In this document: positions 2,164-61,452 of the stretch, piece after piece | Position numbering within the stretch: position 1 is the first letter of the stretch | Layout: each line of letters begins with the position of its first letter | DNA from: Bacilli bacterium | Lineage (GTDB): Bacteria > Bacillota_I > Bacilli_A > RF39 > UBA660 | Assembly: GCA_017511805.1 (NCBI GenBank) | Contig: JAFWJA010000021.1 | Coordinates: 65,956 to 129,955 of the forward strand | DNA: 64,000 nucleotides | Direction: 5' to 3' | Program-made: the position numbers and the translations under genes | Notes under the pieces: model-generated | What the model saw: the letters and a program-made list of their open reading frames with translations, nothing else | Databases searched by the model: none | Told to the model about the DNA's origin: nothing

Positions 2164-3751
2164 ATATAAATAAACATACTATACCAGCTATAGCTAATAT
2201 AGAGAATAATACTAATGATATTTTGTAAGTCCATACTTTTTTAACTTGACCATCTATTGTATATTGATATATTTCAATATATGGAACTGGACTTCTTCTA
2301 TACCAACCAGTTACTTTTATTTCTTTACCAACATATTTACCTGATTTAAATAAAGCAAATATTTTATTTATTATGAACATAGGTTGGTTATAATCTAAGA
2401 ACATAATACCTGTTTTATCTTTAATTACAAAATCTTCACTAAATATACAACCAGGATCACCTTTACCTATGATAGTACCTTCTACTATAGCAGGAACTGA
2501 TGTAACTTGTGAAACATTTACTTCACCTAATAAATCTTCAACTGTAGTTTCTTTATAACCTGTTTTGTGTGCTCTTTTAAACTTAATAAATAATAATAAA
2601 CTTGTTACTAATAAACCTGCACCAATAATTTTCCACATATAATCTTGAATTGTTATTGCTAATATAGTAGTTGTTATTATACTTATCCAAGGAAGAATAA
2701 CTAGTAATAACTCAAATAAAAAGTTATCAACATAGCTTTGATCTTTCTTTAAATCAAATACTATATATGGTTTCATATTCATAGATTCTGCGATAGAAGA
2801 TATTCTATTAATTCTTTTTGAGATAAGAGGATGTGTAGAATTTAATTCAAACCATTTTGCCCATGGATTCCACATTTCCCATTTCATAGCATTTTTAATC
2901 TTATCTTTATTAATACCTTTTTCATCTATAGCAGATACTGCCATAGCTTTAGATGCACTTTTATCAAAGATACCTAAAGCATTTCTCTTTGAAACATCTT
3001 GATATTTTTTTCCTTTTTCAGTTTCTGGTTTAGATGAAGTACTTAAACCAAAACCAATTTTTACTAAAGCTTCTGCTAGTGCATTTGGTTTTCCTGTTTC
3101 TTGTACAGAGAATTCATCTGCATAGTATTCTCTTGTTCTAGATAGCCATAATATAAAGTATTGACTTATGATATATAAAACAAATGCTATATAACCAACA
3201 ATGGCAGCTTTACTATCATCACTATCACTACTACTTCTATTGTCTGCTAATAATTCATATATTGCATACATAACAAGTGGTACTACTTGAACAGCAGTCA
3301 TAACAAGCATATCCATATGAACAATATGTCCCATTTCATGACCAACAACAGCTTTAACTTCATCTTCAGTTAATAATTCAAAAATACCTCTAGTTAATAC
3401 TAATCTAGCATCCTTTTTAGTTCTTCCATAAGTAAATGCATTTGGTGCTCCATCTTCGATAATTCCTATTTTTGGATATTTAACATTATACTTAGTACAT
3501 TCTTCTTCAATAAACTTCTTTAAATAATCTGGTATTTCTTTATCAAATTTAGCTTTATAGAAAAATCTCATTGATAAGTCTGTTAACCATGGAGCTATTA
3601 AAAATTGAACTGCTATTATAACTATACCTGCGATAATAGCAATTAATACATTACCTCCTAGTAATAATGTAGCAAGTATAATAATACCTGCAAGTAAACC
3701 ATATAAACAAGTTATAGTAAATAATGATACCCCTAAAACTTTACTTTTCAT
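2162..3751 (-). CDS. M48-family Zn metallopeptidase (HtpX-like) with extra C-terminal membrane/OB-like extension
   Basis: HEMGH zinc-binding motif flanked by multiple TM helices. The extra C-terminal region of about 200 aa has 2 further hydrophobic segments. Confidence 0.75.
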   Translation of the reverse strand: MKSKVLGVSLFTITCLYGLLAGIIILATLLLGGNVLIAIIAGIVIIAVQFLIAPWLTDLSMRFFYKAKFDKEIPDYLKKFIEEECTKYNVKYPKIGIIEDGAPNAFTYGRTKKDARLVLTRGIFELLTEDEVKAVVGHEMGHIVHMDMLVMTAVQVVPLVMYAIYELLADNRSSSDSDDSKAAIVGYIAFVLYIISQYFILWLSRTREYYADEFSVQETGKPNALAEALVKIGFGLSTSSKPETEKGKKYQDVSKRNALGIFDKSASKAMAVSAIDEKGINKDKIKNAMKWEMWNPWAKWFELNSTHPLISKRINRISSIAESMNMKPYIVFDLKKDQSYVDNFLFELLLVILPWISIITTTILAITIQDYMWKIIGAGLLVTSLLLFIKFKRAHKTGYKETTVEDLLGEVNVSQVTSVPAIVEGTIIGKGDPGCIFSEDFVIKDKTGIMFLDYNQPMFIINKIFALFKSGKYVGKEIKVTGWYRRSPVPYIEIYQYTIDGQVKKVWTYKISLVLFSILAIAGIVCLFI

Positions 3752-3834
3752 ACATACTCCTTTCTACTAAATATATTATCATTTTTTTATATAAATAACA
3801 ATTATAATATGATATAATTATTATAGGTGAAAAT

Positions 3835-4077: not shown

Positions 4078-6105
4078 ATGGATAAGAAAATAGAATATTT
4101 AAAGAAATATGTAGATTATTTAGAAAGAGGGGGTATGTCCTCGACTAGAGATGAATTAGAAGCTAAATATTATGTAGAAAATGATCCTGAATTATCAAAA
4201 GTTGTTAAGGATATAAATGAATCTAAAACTAGAGATGAAATGTTACAATCTATTGAAGCCTATAAAAAATCAGTAATAGCTAAACAAGATGAATTAGAAA
4301 GAATAAGAGAAGCTTGTAGTAGAGTATTTGGTATTTCATTAGATAAAGTTGAGCATAAAAGATTAAAATCAGGTATTGATATAATTGCTTTTTATGATGC
4401 TAAATTAGGTAGAAAAAGAATAATTGATTATAGTTATGCTAAATCATTAATTAATGAATTTACTAATATTCAAAATAGTGATAAAGATTTTCAAACTGAA
4501 GATGATGCGATGAATGCGGAAGCTATTGCTAAAAAAGAAGCTGATAGTAATTTAAAAAGAGAACTTGATTTGATTGATATAGAAAGAGCAAAAAATGAAT
4601 ATACAGAACTAATTAAAAGAGTACCTAATCAAGATCCTAAAAAGATAAGTAGTATTTTAAAGATATTAGCGGAAGCTGGTAAGAGAAATATTAAATATAT
4701 AAACTTTGAAAATATGGTTGCTTTAGATGATAAAGGTAATATTATTGAATCTTATTATAATGAAAAAACAAATGAAGTAGTTATGGAAAGTCCTGAAGAT
4801 TATGATTCATTTGTTGCTTATAGAGATGAAGAATCTCCAGCTCCTTTAGAAGAAAATCCTGATACTTTAGAACAAGAACAAAAAGAAGAGGAAGAGATAA
4901 AGGATAACGAAGATGAACTTAAGGTATATAAACAAAATCCTAGTCAACCAGTTATAAATAGAACACAAACTAGTACAACTCCTAATTTAGAAACTTATAT
5001 ACCTAATACTAGTGGAGTAGTAGTAGCTGCACCTAATTCTGCTAAGGGTCATTTACAAAGAGCAGTTGATGCAGAAGGTGCTTTAAATAATATGTTTAAA
5101 GAAAAAACAGTTGCAGCTATAGATGCAAAGGGTAAAATAGCATTAGCTCAAAAAATAGAAACTGCTAGAGCAGCTTTACAAAGAATAGCATCTAGTTTAA
5201 TGTCTACTTTAGAATTAAGAGGTGATTCTGAATCACAATTAGCAGCTAGTAAATTAAGAGGTATAGTAGCTGGTTTAGATTCAGAAAAAGGTGGTATAGA
5301 ATTATATACCATATACGATAGAATAATTGATGCTTTAACAGGTACGGATCTATTAAATAAGTCATTAGATTCTCAATTAATGGGTTATCAAGATCAAATT
5401 AAAAATTGTTTAGTAATGTTAGAAAGAAATTTTGGTGAAGTAGATCCAAAAACATTTACATCAAAGGACATGAGTGAAAAAACAGATTTTTATAAAATAG
5501 AATCTGAAAATGCAGACGCAGAATTAAAGATAATTGAAGATAATGCAACAGAAGATACAAAGGCTGCTATCAATATACTAAAGAGTATTGGTAAATCATT
5601 ATATGAACAACCTGCAGATTTTAGTTCACTTGATAGAGATGGTAAAACATTAGAAGAATATATGGATGAGAAATATGCGGAAAACAATATAGGAAATGAA
5701 ATAACTCCAAATGTAGTTCTTGATCCTAATCAAGTAGAAGTAGATCCAATTGATTTTGAATTAAAAGAACAAGTAGTAACACCAGAAGAATTAGATTTAG
5801 AAAATGAAATGAAAGTATGTTCTATAAATAAAGATAAAGATGAATTATATAAAAGAATTCAAGAATATGCAAAGAATATGGCTCAATTAGATGATGATTT
5901 TGAAAAACAAAGAATTAGTAAAGAAGAATTTGACTTCTATGAATTAATGAGTAAAAGGTACATAGAAAAATTACAATTAAAAAAAGTTAGAGTTAAAACA
6001 TTAGAGTATGATCCGAATAAAGAAGGTGGATCAGTTGCTTTAATGGTAGTAGCGGCTATTACAATAATTGTTTCTATTATAGTATTAATAGTAATGCATA
6101 AATAA
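4078..6105 (+). CDS. Large acidic coiled-coil hypothetical protein with C-terminal tail anchor
   Basis: 675 aa, rich in E/K/D, with a single C-terminal hydrophobic helix VALMVVAAITIIVSIIVLIV. No recognisable catalytic motif. Confidence 0.5.
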   Translation: MDKKIEYLKKYVDYLERGGMSSTRDELEAKYYVENDPELSKVVKDINESKTRDEMLQSIEAYKKSVIAKQDELERIREACSRVFGISLDKVEHKRLKSGIDIIAFYDAKLGRKRIIDYSYAKSLINEFTNIQNSDKDFQTEDDAMNAEAIAKKEADSNLKRELDLIDIERAKNEYTELIKRVPNQDPKKISSILKILAEAGKRNIKYINFENMVALDDKGNIIESYYNEKTNEVVMESPEDYDSFVAYRDEESPAPLEENPDTLEQEQKEEEEIKDNEDELKVYKQNPSQPVINRTQTSTTPNLETYIPNTSGVVVAAPNSAKGHLQRAVDAEGALNNMFKEKTVAAIDAKGKIALAQKIETARAALQRIASSLMSTLELRGDSESQLAASKLRGIVAGLDSEKGGIELYTIYDRIIDALTGTDLLNKSLDSQLMGYQDQIKNCLVMLERNFGEVDPKTFTSKDMSEKTDFYKIESENADAELKIIEDNATEDTKAAINILKSIGKSLYEQPADFSSLDRDGKTLEEYMDEKYAENNIGNEITPNVVLDPNQVEVDPIDFELKEQVVTPEELDLENEMKVCSINKDKDELYKRIQEYAKNMAQLDDDFEKQRISKEEFDFYELMSKRYIEKLQLKKVRVKTLEYDPNKEGGSVALMVVAAITIIVSIIVLIVMHK

Positions 6106-6117
6106 GGAGGTGAATAT

Positions 6118-6339
6118 ATGAAAAAATGTTCTGAATGTAATGTTGAAATGATTGAAGGTGTTGAAGTTTCTGGGCAACAACATTTAGAAATTGGTCCTGA
6201 AAGTCAATCAACTATTTATCTTAATATTCCAACTGGTAAAAAGTTTCTAGGATTTGATAGAACAACAAGAGTTAAACCACTAGCTAGAATATGCCCTAAA
6301 TGTGGTAAAGTAGAATTATATGTAAATATAGAAGAATAA
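6118..6339 (+). CDS. Small zinc-ribbon protein
   Basis: CSECN ... CPKCG. RBS AGGAGGTG upstream. Confidence 0.5.
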   Translation: MKKCSECNVEMIEGVEVSGQQHLEIGPESQSTIYLNIPTGKKFLGFDRTTRVKPLARICPKCGKVELYVNIEE

Positions 6340-6340
6340 A

Positions 6341-6368
6341 ATGAGAAAAGATTTCTCATTTTTTTATT
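6341..6368 (+). terminator. Intrinsic terminator
   Basis: Hairpin tgagaaa-aga-tttctca followed by T-run ttttttt. Confidence 0.7.
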
Positions 6369-6390
6369 ATGTGTTATAATATGTTTAACA

Positions 6391-6515
6391 TCTTATAAAG
6401 AGAGACGGAGTGACATGGCACTGTGAAGTCTCACCAACCTATTAAGTTAGGTGGTAAAGCCTGATCTATAAGATAACTAATAAGACTCAAAGTTATCTTT
6501 GAGTCTTTTATATTT
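6391..6515 (+). promoter_or_regulatory. SAM-I (S-box) riboswitch with antiterminator/terminator expression platform
   Basis: P1 TCTTATA (6391-6397) pairs with TATAAGA (6467-6473). Conserved segments AGAGAGacGGAG, GA, GGC, TGAA, CACCAACC, GGTGgtAA and CCTG match the SAM-I consensus. Alternative helix AAGATAACT (6471-6479) pairs with AGTTATCTT (6491-6499) as an antiterminator. Terminator agactcaaag-ttat-ctttgagtct (6483-6506) plus T-run. Extended -10 TGTTATAAT at 6372-6380. Confidence 0.75.
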
Positions 6516-6539
6516 ATAGGATGTTAGGAAGGAGGATAT

Positions 6540-6794
6540 ATGCGTACTCAATATTTTGTACAAGAACATGGATACTATGAAAGAGGGGCATTCTATGAAT
6601 ATATACATAATAAATATAAATTAAAAGATTTGTTTTTTAATAAAGATTATATGTCTAGTAGTAGTTTTCCATTTGTAATTGATTTTAAAAAGAAATATTT
6701 AACTGTATGTGAAAGTATAACATGTTGTGCAATGGCTGTACAAAATAAAAGAATAATGAATGTAGAAGAATTTAAAAAGAAAGAAGGTAAATAA
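6540..6794 (+). CDS. Hypothetical 84-aa protein, first gene under the SAM riboswitch
   Basis: Strong RBS GGAGG 8 nt upstream. Stop and start of the next gene overlap (TAATG). Confidence 0.5.
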   Translation: MRTQYFVQEHGYYERGAFYEYIHNKYKLKDLFFNKDYMSSSSFPFVIDFKKKYLTVCESITCCAMAVQNKRIMNVEEFKKKEGK

Positions 6795-7576
6795 TGATAG
6801 AGAAAGTTAATCCATCTCATCCAGATAAAGTAGCGGATAGAATAGCGGGTGCTATAGTAGATTTAGCATATACTAAATCTAGTACACCTAAGATTGCTGT
6901 GGAAATATTACTAGGGCATGGTAATTGTCATATAATAATAGAAACTAGTGAAGAATTTAAATATGAAGAAATAGATAAAATAGTAAAAAGAATAGGGGGT
7001 AATTTAAAACTAGATTTACAAATAGTAAAACAAGATCCTCATTTAGCACATAATCAAGATAGTCTAATTAGATGTGGAGATAATGGTATATTTAAAGGAG
7101 TACCATTAAGAGAAGAAGATAAGAAATTATCTAAGATAGCTCATGATATATATGATATATCTTCTAGTGATGGTAAATATGTTTTAGATGGTGATAAATT
7201 AATAATTTGCCAAAGTAATGTAATTAGTTCTGAATTACAAAAACTCTTCCCAAATGCCCAAATAAATCCATTAGGAGATTGGACTGGAGGTTCAGACGTT
7301 GACTCGGGAGCCACTAATCGTAAATTAGGTTCAGATATGGCAGAATCTGTTACTGGTGGAGGACTACATGGTAAAGATTTATCTAAGTCAGATGTCGCAA
7401 TTAATATATATGTATTTTTAAAAGCACAAGAACTAAATAAAGAAGTAAAATTATCTTGTGCGATAGGAGATGAATATGTTGATAATAGACCATATTCTGA
7501 AATAGTAGATATAGCAAGAGATTATATTAATAAAATAGGTGGATTTGAGAAATTAGCTGAATGGGGATTGTATTAA
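6794..7576 (+). CDS. Shortened S-adenosylmethionine synthetase (MetK/MAT)-like protein, 260 aa
   Basis: N-terminal NPSHPDKVADRIAGAIVD resembles MetK GHPDKIADQISDA. GDNGIFKG resembles GAGDQGLMFGYA. DSGATNRKLGSDMAESVTGGGLHGKDLSKSDVAINIY resembles [39 protein letters not shown]. About 130 aa of the canonical 380-390 aa enzyme are missing. Confidence 0.6.
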   Translation: MIEKVNPSHPDKVADRIAGAIVDLAYTKSSTPKIAVEILLGHGNCHIIIETSEEFKYEEIDKIVKRIGGNLKLDLQIVKQDPHLAHNQDSLIRCGDNGIFKGVPLREEDKKLSKIAHDIYDISSSDGKYVLDGDKLIICQSNVISSELQKLFPNAQINPLGDWTGGSDVDSGATNRKLGSDMAESVTGGGLHGKDLSKSDVAINIYVFLKAQELNKEVKLSCAIGDEYVDNRPYSEIVDIARDYINKIGGFEKLAEWGLY

Positions 7577-7581
7577 AAAAA

Positions 7582-7612
7582 AATAACTAATTTATTTAGT
7601 TATTTTATTTTT
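7582..7612. terminator. Bidirectional intrinsic terminator
   Basis: 9-bp stem aataactaa-tttat-ttagttatt followed by T-run; it overlaps the stop of the minus-strand gene. Confidence 0.7.
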
Positions 7613-41658: not shown

Positions 41659-41732
41659 AGGGGTGTAGTTAAATGGTATAATAGGAGTCTCCAAAACTTT
41701 TGTTGGGAGTTCGATTCTCTCCACCCCTGCCA
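41659..41732 (+). tRNA. trnW: tRNA-Trp (anticodon CCA)
   Basis: Cloverleaf folded by hand: acceptor AGGGGTG/CACCCCT, D-stem GTTA/TAAT, anticodon stem GGAGT/ACTTT with loop CTCCAAA (U33, CCA, A37), T-arm GGGAG-TTCGATT-CTCTC, discriminator G, encoded CCA. Confidence 0.85.
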
Positions 41733-53681: not shown

Positions 53682-53712
53682 AAAGAGTTACATTTTGTAA
53701 CTCTTTTATTTA
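53682..53712. terminator. Bidirectional intrinsic terminator
   Basis: Stem aaagagttac-atttt-gtaactcttt. Confidence 0.75.
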
Positions 53713-55148
53713 TATTTCTTTTCAAAATATTCAATTATAGGTCTTGTTTCTAAATCTTTACCACATACTCTTTTAGCTACTTCAAATATATTATAAGTAC
53801 CAGCATATTTATGTATGTTTTCATTTAAGAACTTAGTTATTTCATTTATTTTACCTGTCTTTAATAGTTCATCTACCTTACCTATCTTTTCATATAGCAT
53901 TCCATCAAATATAGTTCCTAATAGGTAATCTGGAAAGTATCCAAATGAAGCATCTGACCAGTGAGTATCTTGAAGTATTCCTTCTTTATCTTCTTTAACA
54001 GTAACTCCTAAATAGTCATAATACTTTTTATTCCAAATACTAGGTAATTCATCTAGATTAGTAATATTACCATTAAATATATCTCTTTCTATTTCATATC
54101 TTATTATTATATGAAGACAGTAAGTTAATTCATCTGCGTATATTCTTACTAATGATGGTTTAGCATCATTTAAATAGTCCATATATTCATCAAGAGATAT
54201 ATTTAAATGAGCCATTTTCTTAATATCATCATATATTGGTATCCAGAAATTCTTATTTCTTCCTAGTATATTTTCATAGAATCTAGATTGACTTTCATGT
54301 AGTGCAAGTAAATTATTATCACAAATATTTAATTCACTAAATTCATCAGCTTGTCTTTGTTCAAATATACCATGTCCACCTTCATGAATAATAGTAGTAA
54401 CTAAATCAATTACATCTTTAGCATCATACGCAATTCTTACATCATCTTTTGATATAGTACTAGTATATCCATGAGTATAATTACCTAGAGCTCCTCTATT
54501 ATTATCAAAACCTATATAATTAAGAACATATCTAGCTATTTTAAATTCAGTTTCTTTATCTAGTTTTTCTAATTTATCTAATTTCTTTGGTTTTAAATCT
54601 TTAATTATGGGTATAATACCAGTTTTTAATTCTTCAAATAATCTATCTACATCTTCAGATTTAATACCTTTTTCATAATCACTAAGCATCGCATCATATA
54701 AAACATCATAATCTGGTTTTTTATATTTATAGTATTCCTTAGTCATTTCAATATTCTTTTCTAGATATGGTTTAAATATTGAATAATCACTTTTTTCTTT
54801 AGATTCAGCCCATTTTACTTTTGCAGTACTTCTTTGTTTAACTAAATCTCTATAAAAATCTTTAGGTATTCTTTTATCTTCTTCATATTCTTCTTTTAAA
54901 TTAATATAGTATCTTTGTTTATGTTCTTCTAATTTATTAAATTCATCTGAATTAATTGCGTTATTTAATAATTCTATATATTTATCTGATGTTCTCATAT
55001 CATTAATCTCAGATGATATTTTAGTAATCATATCTATATATAAATCAATAGATTTTTCTGGTGCGATAGTATCTACTTCCCAGTTTAAAATACTATTTAT
55101 AGTTCTCTTTTCATTTATTTCGTTTAAATATTTTATTAGTTCTTCCAT
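53706..55148 (-). CDS. M32 carboxypeptidase (Taq-like) family metallopeptidase
   Basis: HEGGHGIFEQ zinc motif (M32 HEGGHA) and a downstream HESQSRFYE. Confidence 0.7.
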   Translation of the reverse strand: MEELIKYLNEINEKRTINSILNWEVDTIAPEKSIDLYIDMITKISSEINDMRTSDKYIELLNNAINSDEFNKLEEHKQRYYINLKEEYEEDKRIPKDFYRDLVKQRSTAKVKWAESKEKSDYSIFKPYLEKNIEMTKEYYKYKKPDYDVLYDAMLSDYEKGIKSEDVDRLFEELKTGIIPIIKDLKPKKLDKLEKLDKETEFKIARYVLNYIGFDNNRGALGNYTHGYTSTISKDDVRIAYDAKDVIDLVTTIIHEGGHGIFEQRQADEFSELNICDNNLLALHESQSRFYENILGRNKNFWIPIYDDIKKMAHLNISLDEYMDYLNDAKPSLVRIYADELTYCLHIIIRYEIERDIFNGNITNLDELPSIWNKKYYDYLGVTVKEDKEGILQDTHWSDASFGYFPDYLLGTIFDGMLYEKIGKVDELLKTGKINEITKFLNENIHKYAGTYNIFEVAKRVCGKDLETRPIIEYFEKKYK

Positions 55149-61376: not shown

Positions 61377-61452
61377 GGCCTGTTGGTGAAGCGGTTAACA
61401 CATTGCCCTCTCAAGGCAACATTCATGGGTTCAAGTCCCATACAGGTCACCA
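61377..61452 (+). tRNA. tRNA-Glu (anticodon CUC)
   Basis: Hand-folded cloverleaf: acceptor GGCCTGT/ACAGGTC, D-arm GTGA-AGCGGTTA-ACAC, anticodon stem TTGCC/GGCAA with loop CTCTCAA, T-arm ATGGG-TTCAAGT-CCCAT, discriminator A, encoded CCA. The backbone resembles Firmicutes tRNA-Glu but the anticodon is CTC, not TTC. Confidence 0.8.

Follow-up and report, generated by a model that had tools for sequence, protein, structure and literature searches.

The stretch of DNA analysed here, which we call the window, comprises 64,000 nucleotides of an uncultured Bacilli bacterium (positions 65,956 to 129,955 of contig JAFWJA010000021.1, assembly GCA_017511805.1), and the system in question is a riboswitch of the S-adenosylmethionine (SAM) type followed by two genes. 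The first encodes a protein of 84 aa, here termed p84, and the second a protein of 260 aa resembling a shortened methionine adenosyltransferase (MAT, the product of metK), here termed mini-MAT; both open reading frames (ORFs) of this two-gene operon are present as a preliminary description of the sequence had reported. The operon is chromosomal and lies in a metagenome-assembled genome (MAG) from the ruminant gut, with UvrA, Lgt, WhiA and HtrA encoded just upstream; contigs identical to that of the window come from ruminant gut metagenomes. Searches of phage and plasmid collections gave no DNA nearly identical to it. Its 5' neighbour is a gene for a 73-aa zinc-ribbon protein, and mini-MAT is followed by a convergent DUF1847 gene, with no methylase adjacent. 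The element had been taken to run from 6341 to 7576; its first ~25 bases (6341-6365) turn out to be the hairpin of the zinc-ribbon gene, and the rest of the interval stands (Table 1).

The preliminary description had recognised a SAM-I riboswitch by eye, and the covariance model agrees. A cmscan search of the whole window against Rfam 15 returned a sole SAM riboswitch, a plus-strand match to RF00162 (SAM-I) that scores 64.7 bits where 44.4 is the gathering score (E 9.4e-13), and the same model scored above its gathering score in 18 of 18 related loci checked (53.7-69.2 bits). Related loci are cited below by their L numbers. A one-genome-per-species scan with the 260-aa protein yielded 80 loci; with nhmmer, the window leader was found directly upstream of a mini-MAT gene in MAGs of about 33 species, which carry the labels Bacilli, Bacillales or Erysipelotrichaceae. 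The traced aptamer holds for the SAM-I core but not for helix P4, whose 17 positions in the model have no counterpart in the window aptamer or in any of the 33 species of an alignment of related leaders (A2), on which we assessed pairing and covariation; Rfam nevertheless scores such P4-less sequences at 60-69 bits, as 84-nt matches. The four-way junction of P1 to P4 is hence not present, and four variable nucleotides alone connect the pseudoknot strand to P1. What remains is conserved in A2: P1, P2a, P2b, P3 and the pseudoknot are paired in 99.9% of cells, and four pairs, in P2a, P2b and the pseudoknot, have changed on both sides. The P2a pair 21-49 occurs as U-A, C-G and A-U, the P2b pair 29-38 changes on both sides, and the pseudoknot pairs 34-80 and 35-79 pass from U-A to C-G and from A-U to G-C. 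The observed covariation score was reached by 0 of 500 shuffles, and sliding the partner strand reduced pairing to 27-46%. The sequence of the kink-turn (K-turn), GGA...UGAAG, aligns to the RF00162 model.

The literature already describes natural SAM-I aptamers that lack P4, and reports them to be functional with lower affinity (PMC12714719); the window aptamer is therefore best regarded as a lineage-specific variant, and the idea that it represents a new class was rejected on the same ground. In lacking P4 inside the junction it resembles both the short or P4-less SAM-I variants of the Actinomycetota (PMC12714719) and SAM-IV (RF00634). Unlike the former, it resides in a low-GC gut member of the Bacilli; and while the K-turn is absent from SAM-IV and the pseudoknot PK-1 from SAM-I/IV (PMC6890682), the window RNA retains both. 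A conserved PK-2 or P5 of the SAM-IV kind was not found: the one candidate for PK-2, a possible UAUUA/UAAUA pairing of the P3 loop with the 3' tail, is not maintained among the 33 species. One related locus, L105:2651-2968, shows two tandem riboswitch-like nhmmer matches upstream of p84 and mini-MAT, and may carry a duplicated leader.

The mutually exclusive antiterminator and terminator of the preliminary description are likewise recovered, and both are conserved across the aligned leaders. The antiterminator is 98.7% paired in the 33 species, with one compensatory change from C-G to U-A (L076, L077), and it overlaps the P1 3' strand on one side and the terminator on the other. Its downstream strand, AGUUAUCUU, comprises the end of the terminator 5' arm, the loop and the start of the 3' arm; since this strand overlaps the terminator arms and AAGAUAACU overlaps the P1 3' strand, formation of P1, antiterminator and terminator must be mutually exclusive. 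The scan for intrinsic terminators found two sites, against 0.3 in shuffles, and the 6482-6507 hairpin is one of them; the hairpin at 6341-6365 went unlisted because it has fewer than three G-C pairs. Between the terminator and the Shine-Dalgarno sequence lies a second copy of the P1 3' strand, which is 85.8% paired with the P1 5' strand across the 33 species, as compared with 41-56% in slid controls, and which shows no covariation; judging from the predicted fold, it may close the leader in the read-through RNA. The promoter-like site upstream is the best match of the scan (10/12, with the TG extension), and a TGTTATAAT box recurs 5' of the aptamer in L096 and L097.

From these structures we infer that the aptamer would bind SAM and bring about SAM-dependent termination. 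When SAM is plentiful, the bound aptamer would lock P1 and allow the terminator to form, so that transcription would stop short of the genes; at low SAM, the 3' strand of P1 would instead pair with 6491-6499 as antiterminator and the operon would be transcribed. As far as sequence can tell, the proposal of an operon that switches off at high SAM thus appears sound. The arrangement is much like the S-box metK leader of Bacillus subtilis and other Firmicutes, which shares P1, P2 with its K-turn, P3, the pseudoknot between the P2 loop and J3-4, the terminator/antiterminator platform, the OFF logic and the control of a SAM synthetase gene. It departs from the B. subtilis leader in having a three-way junction of 84-85 nt without P4, and from the B. 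subtilis operon in that the enzyme is not a canonical MetK and an extra small gene is present.

The regulated enzyme carries the MetK signature blocks that had been read from its sequence, at residues 9-15, 95-100, 170-179 and 188-200, and is, as had also been stated, about a third shorter than the canonical enzyme (260 aa against 384 aa in E. coli MetK, or ~32%). Conventional models place it poorly. Alignment to the curated metK model TIGR01034 went against the expectation of a MetK match, with 43.8 bits under a cutoff of 309.4; of the Pfam models only S-AdoMet_synt_N (PF00438) matches, at 43.6 bits, while those for the M and C domains do not; and phmmer matches to PDB sequences are confined to the MetK N-terminal block and to the GGG..GKD..K.D block. 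Its best sequence model is phrog_1569 ('unknown function'; 224.5 bits, E 4.9e-66). Of 1.84 billion representative proteins, only 1,210 reach E <= 0.001, with 201 of them at E <= 1e-30 or better, and full-length family members mostly measure 256-300 aa. Because library matches are so few and full-length members mostly so short, we consider mini-MAT a separate compact family and not a truncated metK.

Structure prediction gives a clearer answer. The AF2 model of the protein alone, built from a 35-sequence alignment (38-88% identity), has a predicted local distance difference test score (pLDDT) of 95.7 and a predicted TM-score (pTM) of 0.93, with its sole dip at residues 81-90, where the alignment places the gating loop of MATs. 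All top 50 Foldseek matches in the PDB are MATs, the best being E. coli MetK (7loo; E 2e-19, TMq 0.77), and the alignment spans ~350 columns of the 377-aa MetK, so that the model covers the whole three-domain fold of canonical MetK/MAT enzymes (TIGR01034; PDB 7loo, 1xra and 2p02; TMq 0.70-0.79, 17-21% identity). An hhalign comparison of the family with E. coli MetK (probability 98.7, MetK residues 8-344) aligns the catalytic residues as well: H9, D11 and K12 with H14, D16 and K17 of MetK, E37 with E42, E50 with E55, Q80 with Q98, D96 with D118, W163 with F230, D170 with D238, R176 and K177 with R244 and K245, K194 with K265, K198 with K269, and D200 with D271. The MetK positions, given in literature numbering, we take to be the catalytic and ligand residues. 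In the family alignment H9, D11, K12, E50, D96, R176, K194, K198 and D200 are at least 90% conserved, and E37, Q80 and D170 are conserved in most rows; the equivalent of K165 is ambiguous and is probably K128, in an invariant DGK. By this alignment, the ATP and methionine ligand residues are kept. Compared with canonical enzymes of 380-400 aa, the ~120 missing residues are loop segments in each domain together with the last ~40 residues, and two motifs are altered (CGDNG for GAGDQG, and GGGLHGKD for GGGAFSGKD). We note that annotation as a SAM synthetase is not new, since the NCBI name of the window protein (MBR3117405.1) is 'S-adenosylmethionine synthetase' and its Heliusvirales relatives are listed under K00789. 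A literature search for the short MAT family found only KEGG-style auxiliary-gene annotations, and no biochemical or structural study; a search of the BFVD viral structure library with the model gave no match.

Close relatives are found in phages. By tblastn, genes 62-68% identical occur in 24 phage or prophage records, where they encode phrog_1569 proteins of ~260 aa and are mostly annotated 'hypothetical protein'; carriers include Streptococcus Javan phages, Gardnerella vB_Gva_AB1, Terrisporobacter TPDSL_ph1 and many Ca. Heliusvirales. A study of the Heliusvirales counts K00789 'S-adenosylmethionine synthetase' among their auxiliary metabolic genes and reports it for 58.9% of the genomes (PMC11283538). 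The phage gene order is fixed (helicase, regulator, HNH, terS-like, mini-MAT, DNA methyltransferase) and comprises no riboswitch, in contrast to the chromosomal, riboswitch-controlled copy of the window. Neither the upstream terS-like gene nor the downstream DNA methyltransferase adjoins mini-MAT in the window, or in any of 46 riboswitch-linked loci. In a neighbour-joining (NJ) tree of 98 locus-encoded proteins and 12 distant representatives, all 46 riboswitch-linked copies fall into one clade (50 tips below their most recent common ancestor, the four others lacking or having lost the leader), and this clade is nested inside prophage-type copies, 29 of which have a methyltransferase neighbour and 28 of these 29 also a terS-like gene. 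Annotated loci of the riboswitch type sit among housekeeping genes (PS decarboxylase, LDH, UppS, NrdD, QueH, L21 leader), and in two of them, L093:7120-7809 and L094:3277-3966, a gene of the SAM cycle, MTA/SAH nucleosidase (NF004079, 231 bits), stands immediately upstream of the riboswitch and mini-MAT. Rfam detected no riboswitch at 14 other mini-MAT loci (four phage records, the rest genome loci without the leader), and a pattern scan for the exact leader found none in IMG/VR. We take the window mini-MAT to be a host gene under host control, not part of a prophage. Three members of the riboswitch clade, L030, L032 and L046 (mini-MAT at ~6001-6780), have no SAM riboswitch detectable upstream by Rfam or nhmmer, and may have lost or replaced their leader.

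The position that mini-MAT occupies also bears on its role. A profile search with p84 uncovered locus L100, in which the order is DnaJ, tRNA, a P4-less riboswitch (65.2 bits), a p84 homologue, a 340-aa MetK, tmk and sigA. This MetK is genuine: it passes TIGR01034 (323.8 bits against 309.4) and shares 40% identity with E. coli MetK, as against a mere 26% with mini-MAT. A close relative, with a Tmk 90% identical to that of L100, is represented by two independent contigs, L098 and L099, which carry riboswitch, p84, tmk and sigA; comparison of L098:1-400 and L099 with L100:3350-4850 shows the metK ORF to be precisely absent between p84 and tmk, while the flanking intergenic promoter-like sequence is retained. 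Leader and p84 therefore form a stable unit, behind which the MAT gene may be canonical, mini or missing. Canonical metK was found nowhere in the window and 1.2 Mb of fetched loci except in L100 and L101, which is weak evidence of absence, since the fetched sequence covers flanks only. Taken over window and flanks, these observations suggest that a phage-type mini-MAT replaced metK.

The first gene of the operon (p84, MBR3117404.1) belongs to a new family. No Pfam, NCBIfam or PHROG model matches p84 apart from scattered weak hits such as Pox_E10 (2 of 10 members, E 0.005). A word-based search found only seven relatives, whereas a search with a 10-sequence profile brought up at least 331 clusters; the 120 of these that were listed are all 79-105 aa long, have no Pfam domain and, where named, are called only 'hypothetical protein'. 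Among 52 p84 loci, a P4-less riboswitch lies just upstream in 44, and in most of the others the upstream DNA is cut by the contig end. About a third of the 52 continue into a MAT gene (13 mini-MAT, and 2 metK of one locus type), and at the rest the next gene is unrelated, for instance tmk, ydjM, rimM/trmD or an ftsEX-like gene. The gene stands upstream of mini-MAT in the window, L096, L105, L108, L122, L137 and others, and downstream of it in L014 and L021; most riboswitch/mini-MAT loci have no adjacent p84, nor do the prophage copies within their fetched flanks. Translational coupling through TAATG had also been proposed, and the two ORFs of the window do share one base there, but the junction differs between loci, with an overlap of 35 nt in L096 and a gap of ~10 nt in L105. 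In other lineages small ORFs unrelated to p84 (67-77 aa, no Pfam match) fill the slot between riboswitch and mini-MAT (L012:222-431, L035:5795-5998, L022/L024:5774-5998, L042:5487-5720).

We propose, with a confidence of roughly 70%, that a P4-less SAM-I riboswitch controls a chromosomal two-gene operon encoding p84 and a working mini-MAT that probably fills the role of metK. The second gene would encode a pared-down MAT making SAM from ATP and methionine, which would retain all three MAT domains and the catalytic residues at the cost of ~120 residues of loops and C-terminal tail. Its family would reside mostly in Heliusvirales prophages, beside DNA methyltransferases, and one branch would have been captured by a clade of gut Bacilli, placed under a metK-type leader of the host and there probably have assumed the role of metK, while p84 would be a separate small protein that this bacterial group has kept under the same riboswitch. 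Several points weigh against this interpretation. Mini-MAT fails TIGR01034, the Pfam M and C models miss it, and it shares no more than 17-21% identity with MATs of solved structure; SAM affinity is reported to fall when P4 is lost (PMC12714719); the operon has mobile or defence-type surroundings; a canonical metK may coexist elsewhere in the genome; and the direction of transfer is not proven by the NJ tree, which is a simple distance tree whose deepest branches come without known gene contexts. A more specific scenario, which we regard as possible though the odds are somewhat against it, is that a whole clade of uncultured gut and rumen Bacilli swapped its essential metK for a phage-derived mini-MAT while keeping the ancestral P4-less leader, and that p84, as a hitherto unrecognised protein of the SAM regulon, has a direct effect on SAM synthesis, perhaps by activating or regulating MATs of both types.

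The enzyme might also be a surplus copy of phage origin in an accessory role, for instance a prophage remnant or a helper of nearby DNA methylases, with a normal metK elsewhere and a riboswitch that merely tunes a redundant gene. The family is indeed found mainly in prophages beside DNA methyltransferases and is a frequent auxiliary gene of the Heliusvirales, the window operon has Abi_2, PcfJ, a Dam-type methylase and GmrSD around it, and the genome is seen within the window only. Yet the riboswitch-linked copies form a single clade, whose more than 40 loci at species level lie in diverse housekeeping surroundings and have neither terS nor a methylase beside them; a genuine metK stands under this same leader in L100; L098 and L099 show a clean absence of metK at the corresponding place; and, as weaker evidence, canonical metK is confined to L100 and L101 in the sequence covered; we therefore hold this account to be unlikely. 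Still less probable, and in our judgement improbable, is that the 260-aa protein derives from MetK and performs other SAM-related chemistry, be it on a different nucleotide or amino-acid substrate, as a tripolyphosphatase only, or in SAM cleavage. One may cite in its favour the distance to the metK equivalog cutoff, the altered signature motifs, the loss of about a third of the chain and the 1,210 matches in 1.8 billion representatives, which set the family well apart from canonical MATs. What speaks for SAM synthesis is that mini-MAT keeps those residues which the alignment places at the metal, triphosphate, adenine-stacking and methionine contacts of E. coli MetK, that mini-MAT takes the position of a genuine metK behind the same leader and p84, and that phage copies adjoin SAM-consuming methylases; an OFF switch at high SAM, moreover, suits a producer of SAM and not a degrader. 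Of the two options left by the preliminary description, a compact SAM synthetase hence appears better supported than a MetK-derived enzyme with another activity, on the grounds of the predicted MAT fold, the conserved ligand residues, the OFF switch and the metK behind the L100 leader.

For p84, the proposal that it could be a subunit would make it a dedicated MAT-binding partner or regulator, as MAT2B is for MAT2A, and would explain the coupling of the genes. MATs with a non-catalytic partner are known in principle, but the likeness is one of analogy alone: MAT2B is an SDR-like protein of ~334 aa, and p84 an alpha/beta protein of 84 aa for which no kinship to other proteins was detected beyond its own family. 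The proposal draws on the fact that p84 adjoins two MAT types, mini-MAT on either side and canonical metK in L100, and shares its riboswitch with both; against it stand the some two thirds of p84 loci in which p84 is followed by unrelated genes, most p84 homologues standing alone behind their own riboswitch, the many mini-MATs without adjacent p84, and the variable junction of the two ORFs. We think a dedicated subunit rather unlikely. Because p84 is riboswitch-linked yet often without a MAT neighbour, it is a genuine member of the SAM regulon and not an obligate subunit, and our leading guess is that it is a helper or regulator of SAM synthesis.

Much of this system is of known kinds: the RNA is a SAM-I riboswitch, and the phage-type mini-MAT was already annotated as a SAM synthetase. 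New are a host-chromosomal clade of mini-MATs wired to a P4-less S-box leader, the evidence for the metK position, and a small protein that is widespread and tied to this riboswitch. Almost all organisms have a SAM synthetase, and the enzyme is highly conserved. A version of 260 aa with its active site kept would define a minimal MAT scaffold, of use in enzymology and for SAM analogues, and the riboswitch would supply independent evidence, from genetic logic, that a very common auxiliary gene of gut phages does make SAM. If the host metK has been replaced, a phage gene would have been domesticated into essential metabolism under the host's own regulatory RNA. As a protein with no known domain that accompanies a SAM riboswitch almost one-to-one in hundreds of sequence clusters, p84 is a candidate for a new function in SAM or methionine homeostasis.

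Table 1. Features of the leader and operon, in window coordinates.
Feature	Position	Strand	Basis
Terminator-like AT-rich hairpin ATGAGAAA / TTTCTCAT with T run; ends the 73-aa zinc-ribbon gene, not part of the riboswitch	6341-6365	+	read from sequence
Promoter-like site: -35 TTCTCA (6353-6358), 16-nt spacer, TG-extended -10 TATAAT (6375-6380)	6353-6380	+	consensus match only
SAM-I aptamer, P4-less	6390-6474	+	RF00162, 64.7 bits; 33-species alignment A2
P1	6390-6396/6468-6474	+	aptamer helix
P2a with K-turn	6402-6406/6428-6432	+	aptamer helix
P2b	6410-6412/6419-6421	+	aptamer helix
P3	6433-6441/6448-6455	+	aptamer helix
Pseudoknot	6414-6418 with 6460-6463	+	aptamer
Antiterminator: AAGAUAACU (6470-6478) pairs with AGUUAUCUU (6491-6499)	6470-6499	+	33-species pairing
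Intrinsic terminator: 11-bp stem (6482-6507), 4-nt loop, then U-rich tail UUAUAUUUAU	6482-6517	+	consensus scan and fold
Second copy of P1 3' strand, UUUAUAGGAU	6513-6522	+	pairs with P1 5' strand in minimum-free-energy fold
Shine-Dalgarno AGGAGG of the 84-aa gene	6530-6535	+	sequence
p84: 84 aa, new family, conserved motif FPFxxD...ESxTxCA	6540-6794	+	ORF, homologue searches
mini-MAT: 260-aa compact MAT-like enzyme, phrog_1569 family	6794-7576	+	sequence models, structure model, alignments
AT-rich hairpin AAATAACTAA / TTAGTTATTT separating the operon from the convergent DUF1847 gene	7581-7605	.	read from sequence only, weak

The hairpin that follows the operon is possibly a bidirectional terminator. 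Genes of the mobile or defence type near the operon include Abi_2 upstream (2800-3800), and downstream, between 7592 and 20000, DUF1847, VWA, Macro, PcfJ, a Dam-type methylase (MethyltransfD12) and GmrSD. Farther on (18223-41600), two Fic-domain proteins bracket a block of very large putative surface proteins of 780, 788, 1123 and 2151 aa (Flg_new, DUF285, Cthe_2159, Big_2), after which come UDG, an Amidase_3/LysM protein and an FtsX-type permease of 1146 aa. For one protein of the window, encoded on the minus strand at 53706-55145, no record was found. Near one prophage-type mini-MAT locus there is an azaaromatic (yjdF) riboswitch, unrelated to the operon (L043:10783-10880, 89 bits). The window also holds two tRNA genes, at 41659-41729 (61.7 bits) and 61377-61449 (63.5 bits).

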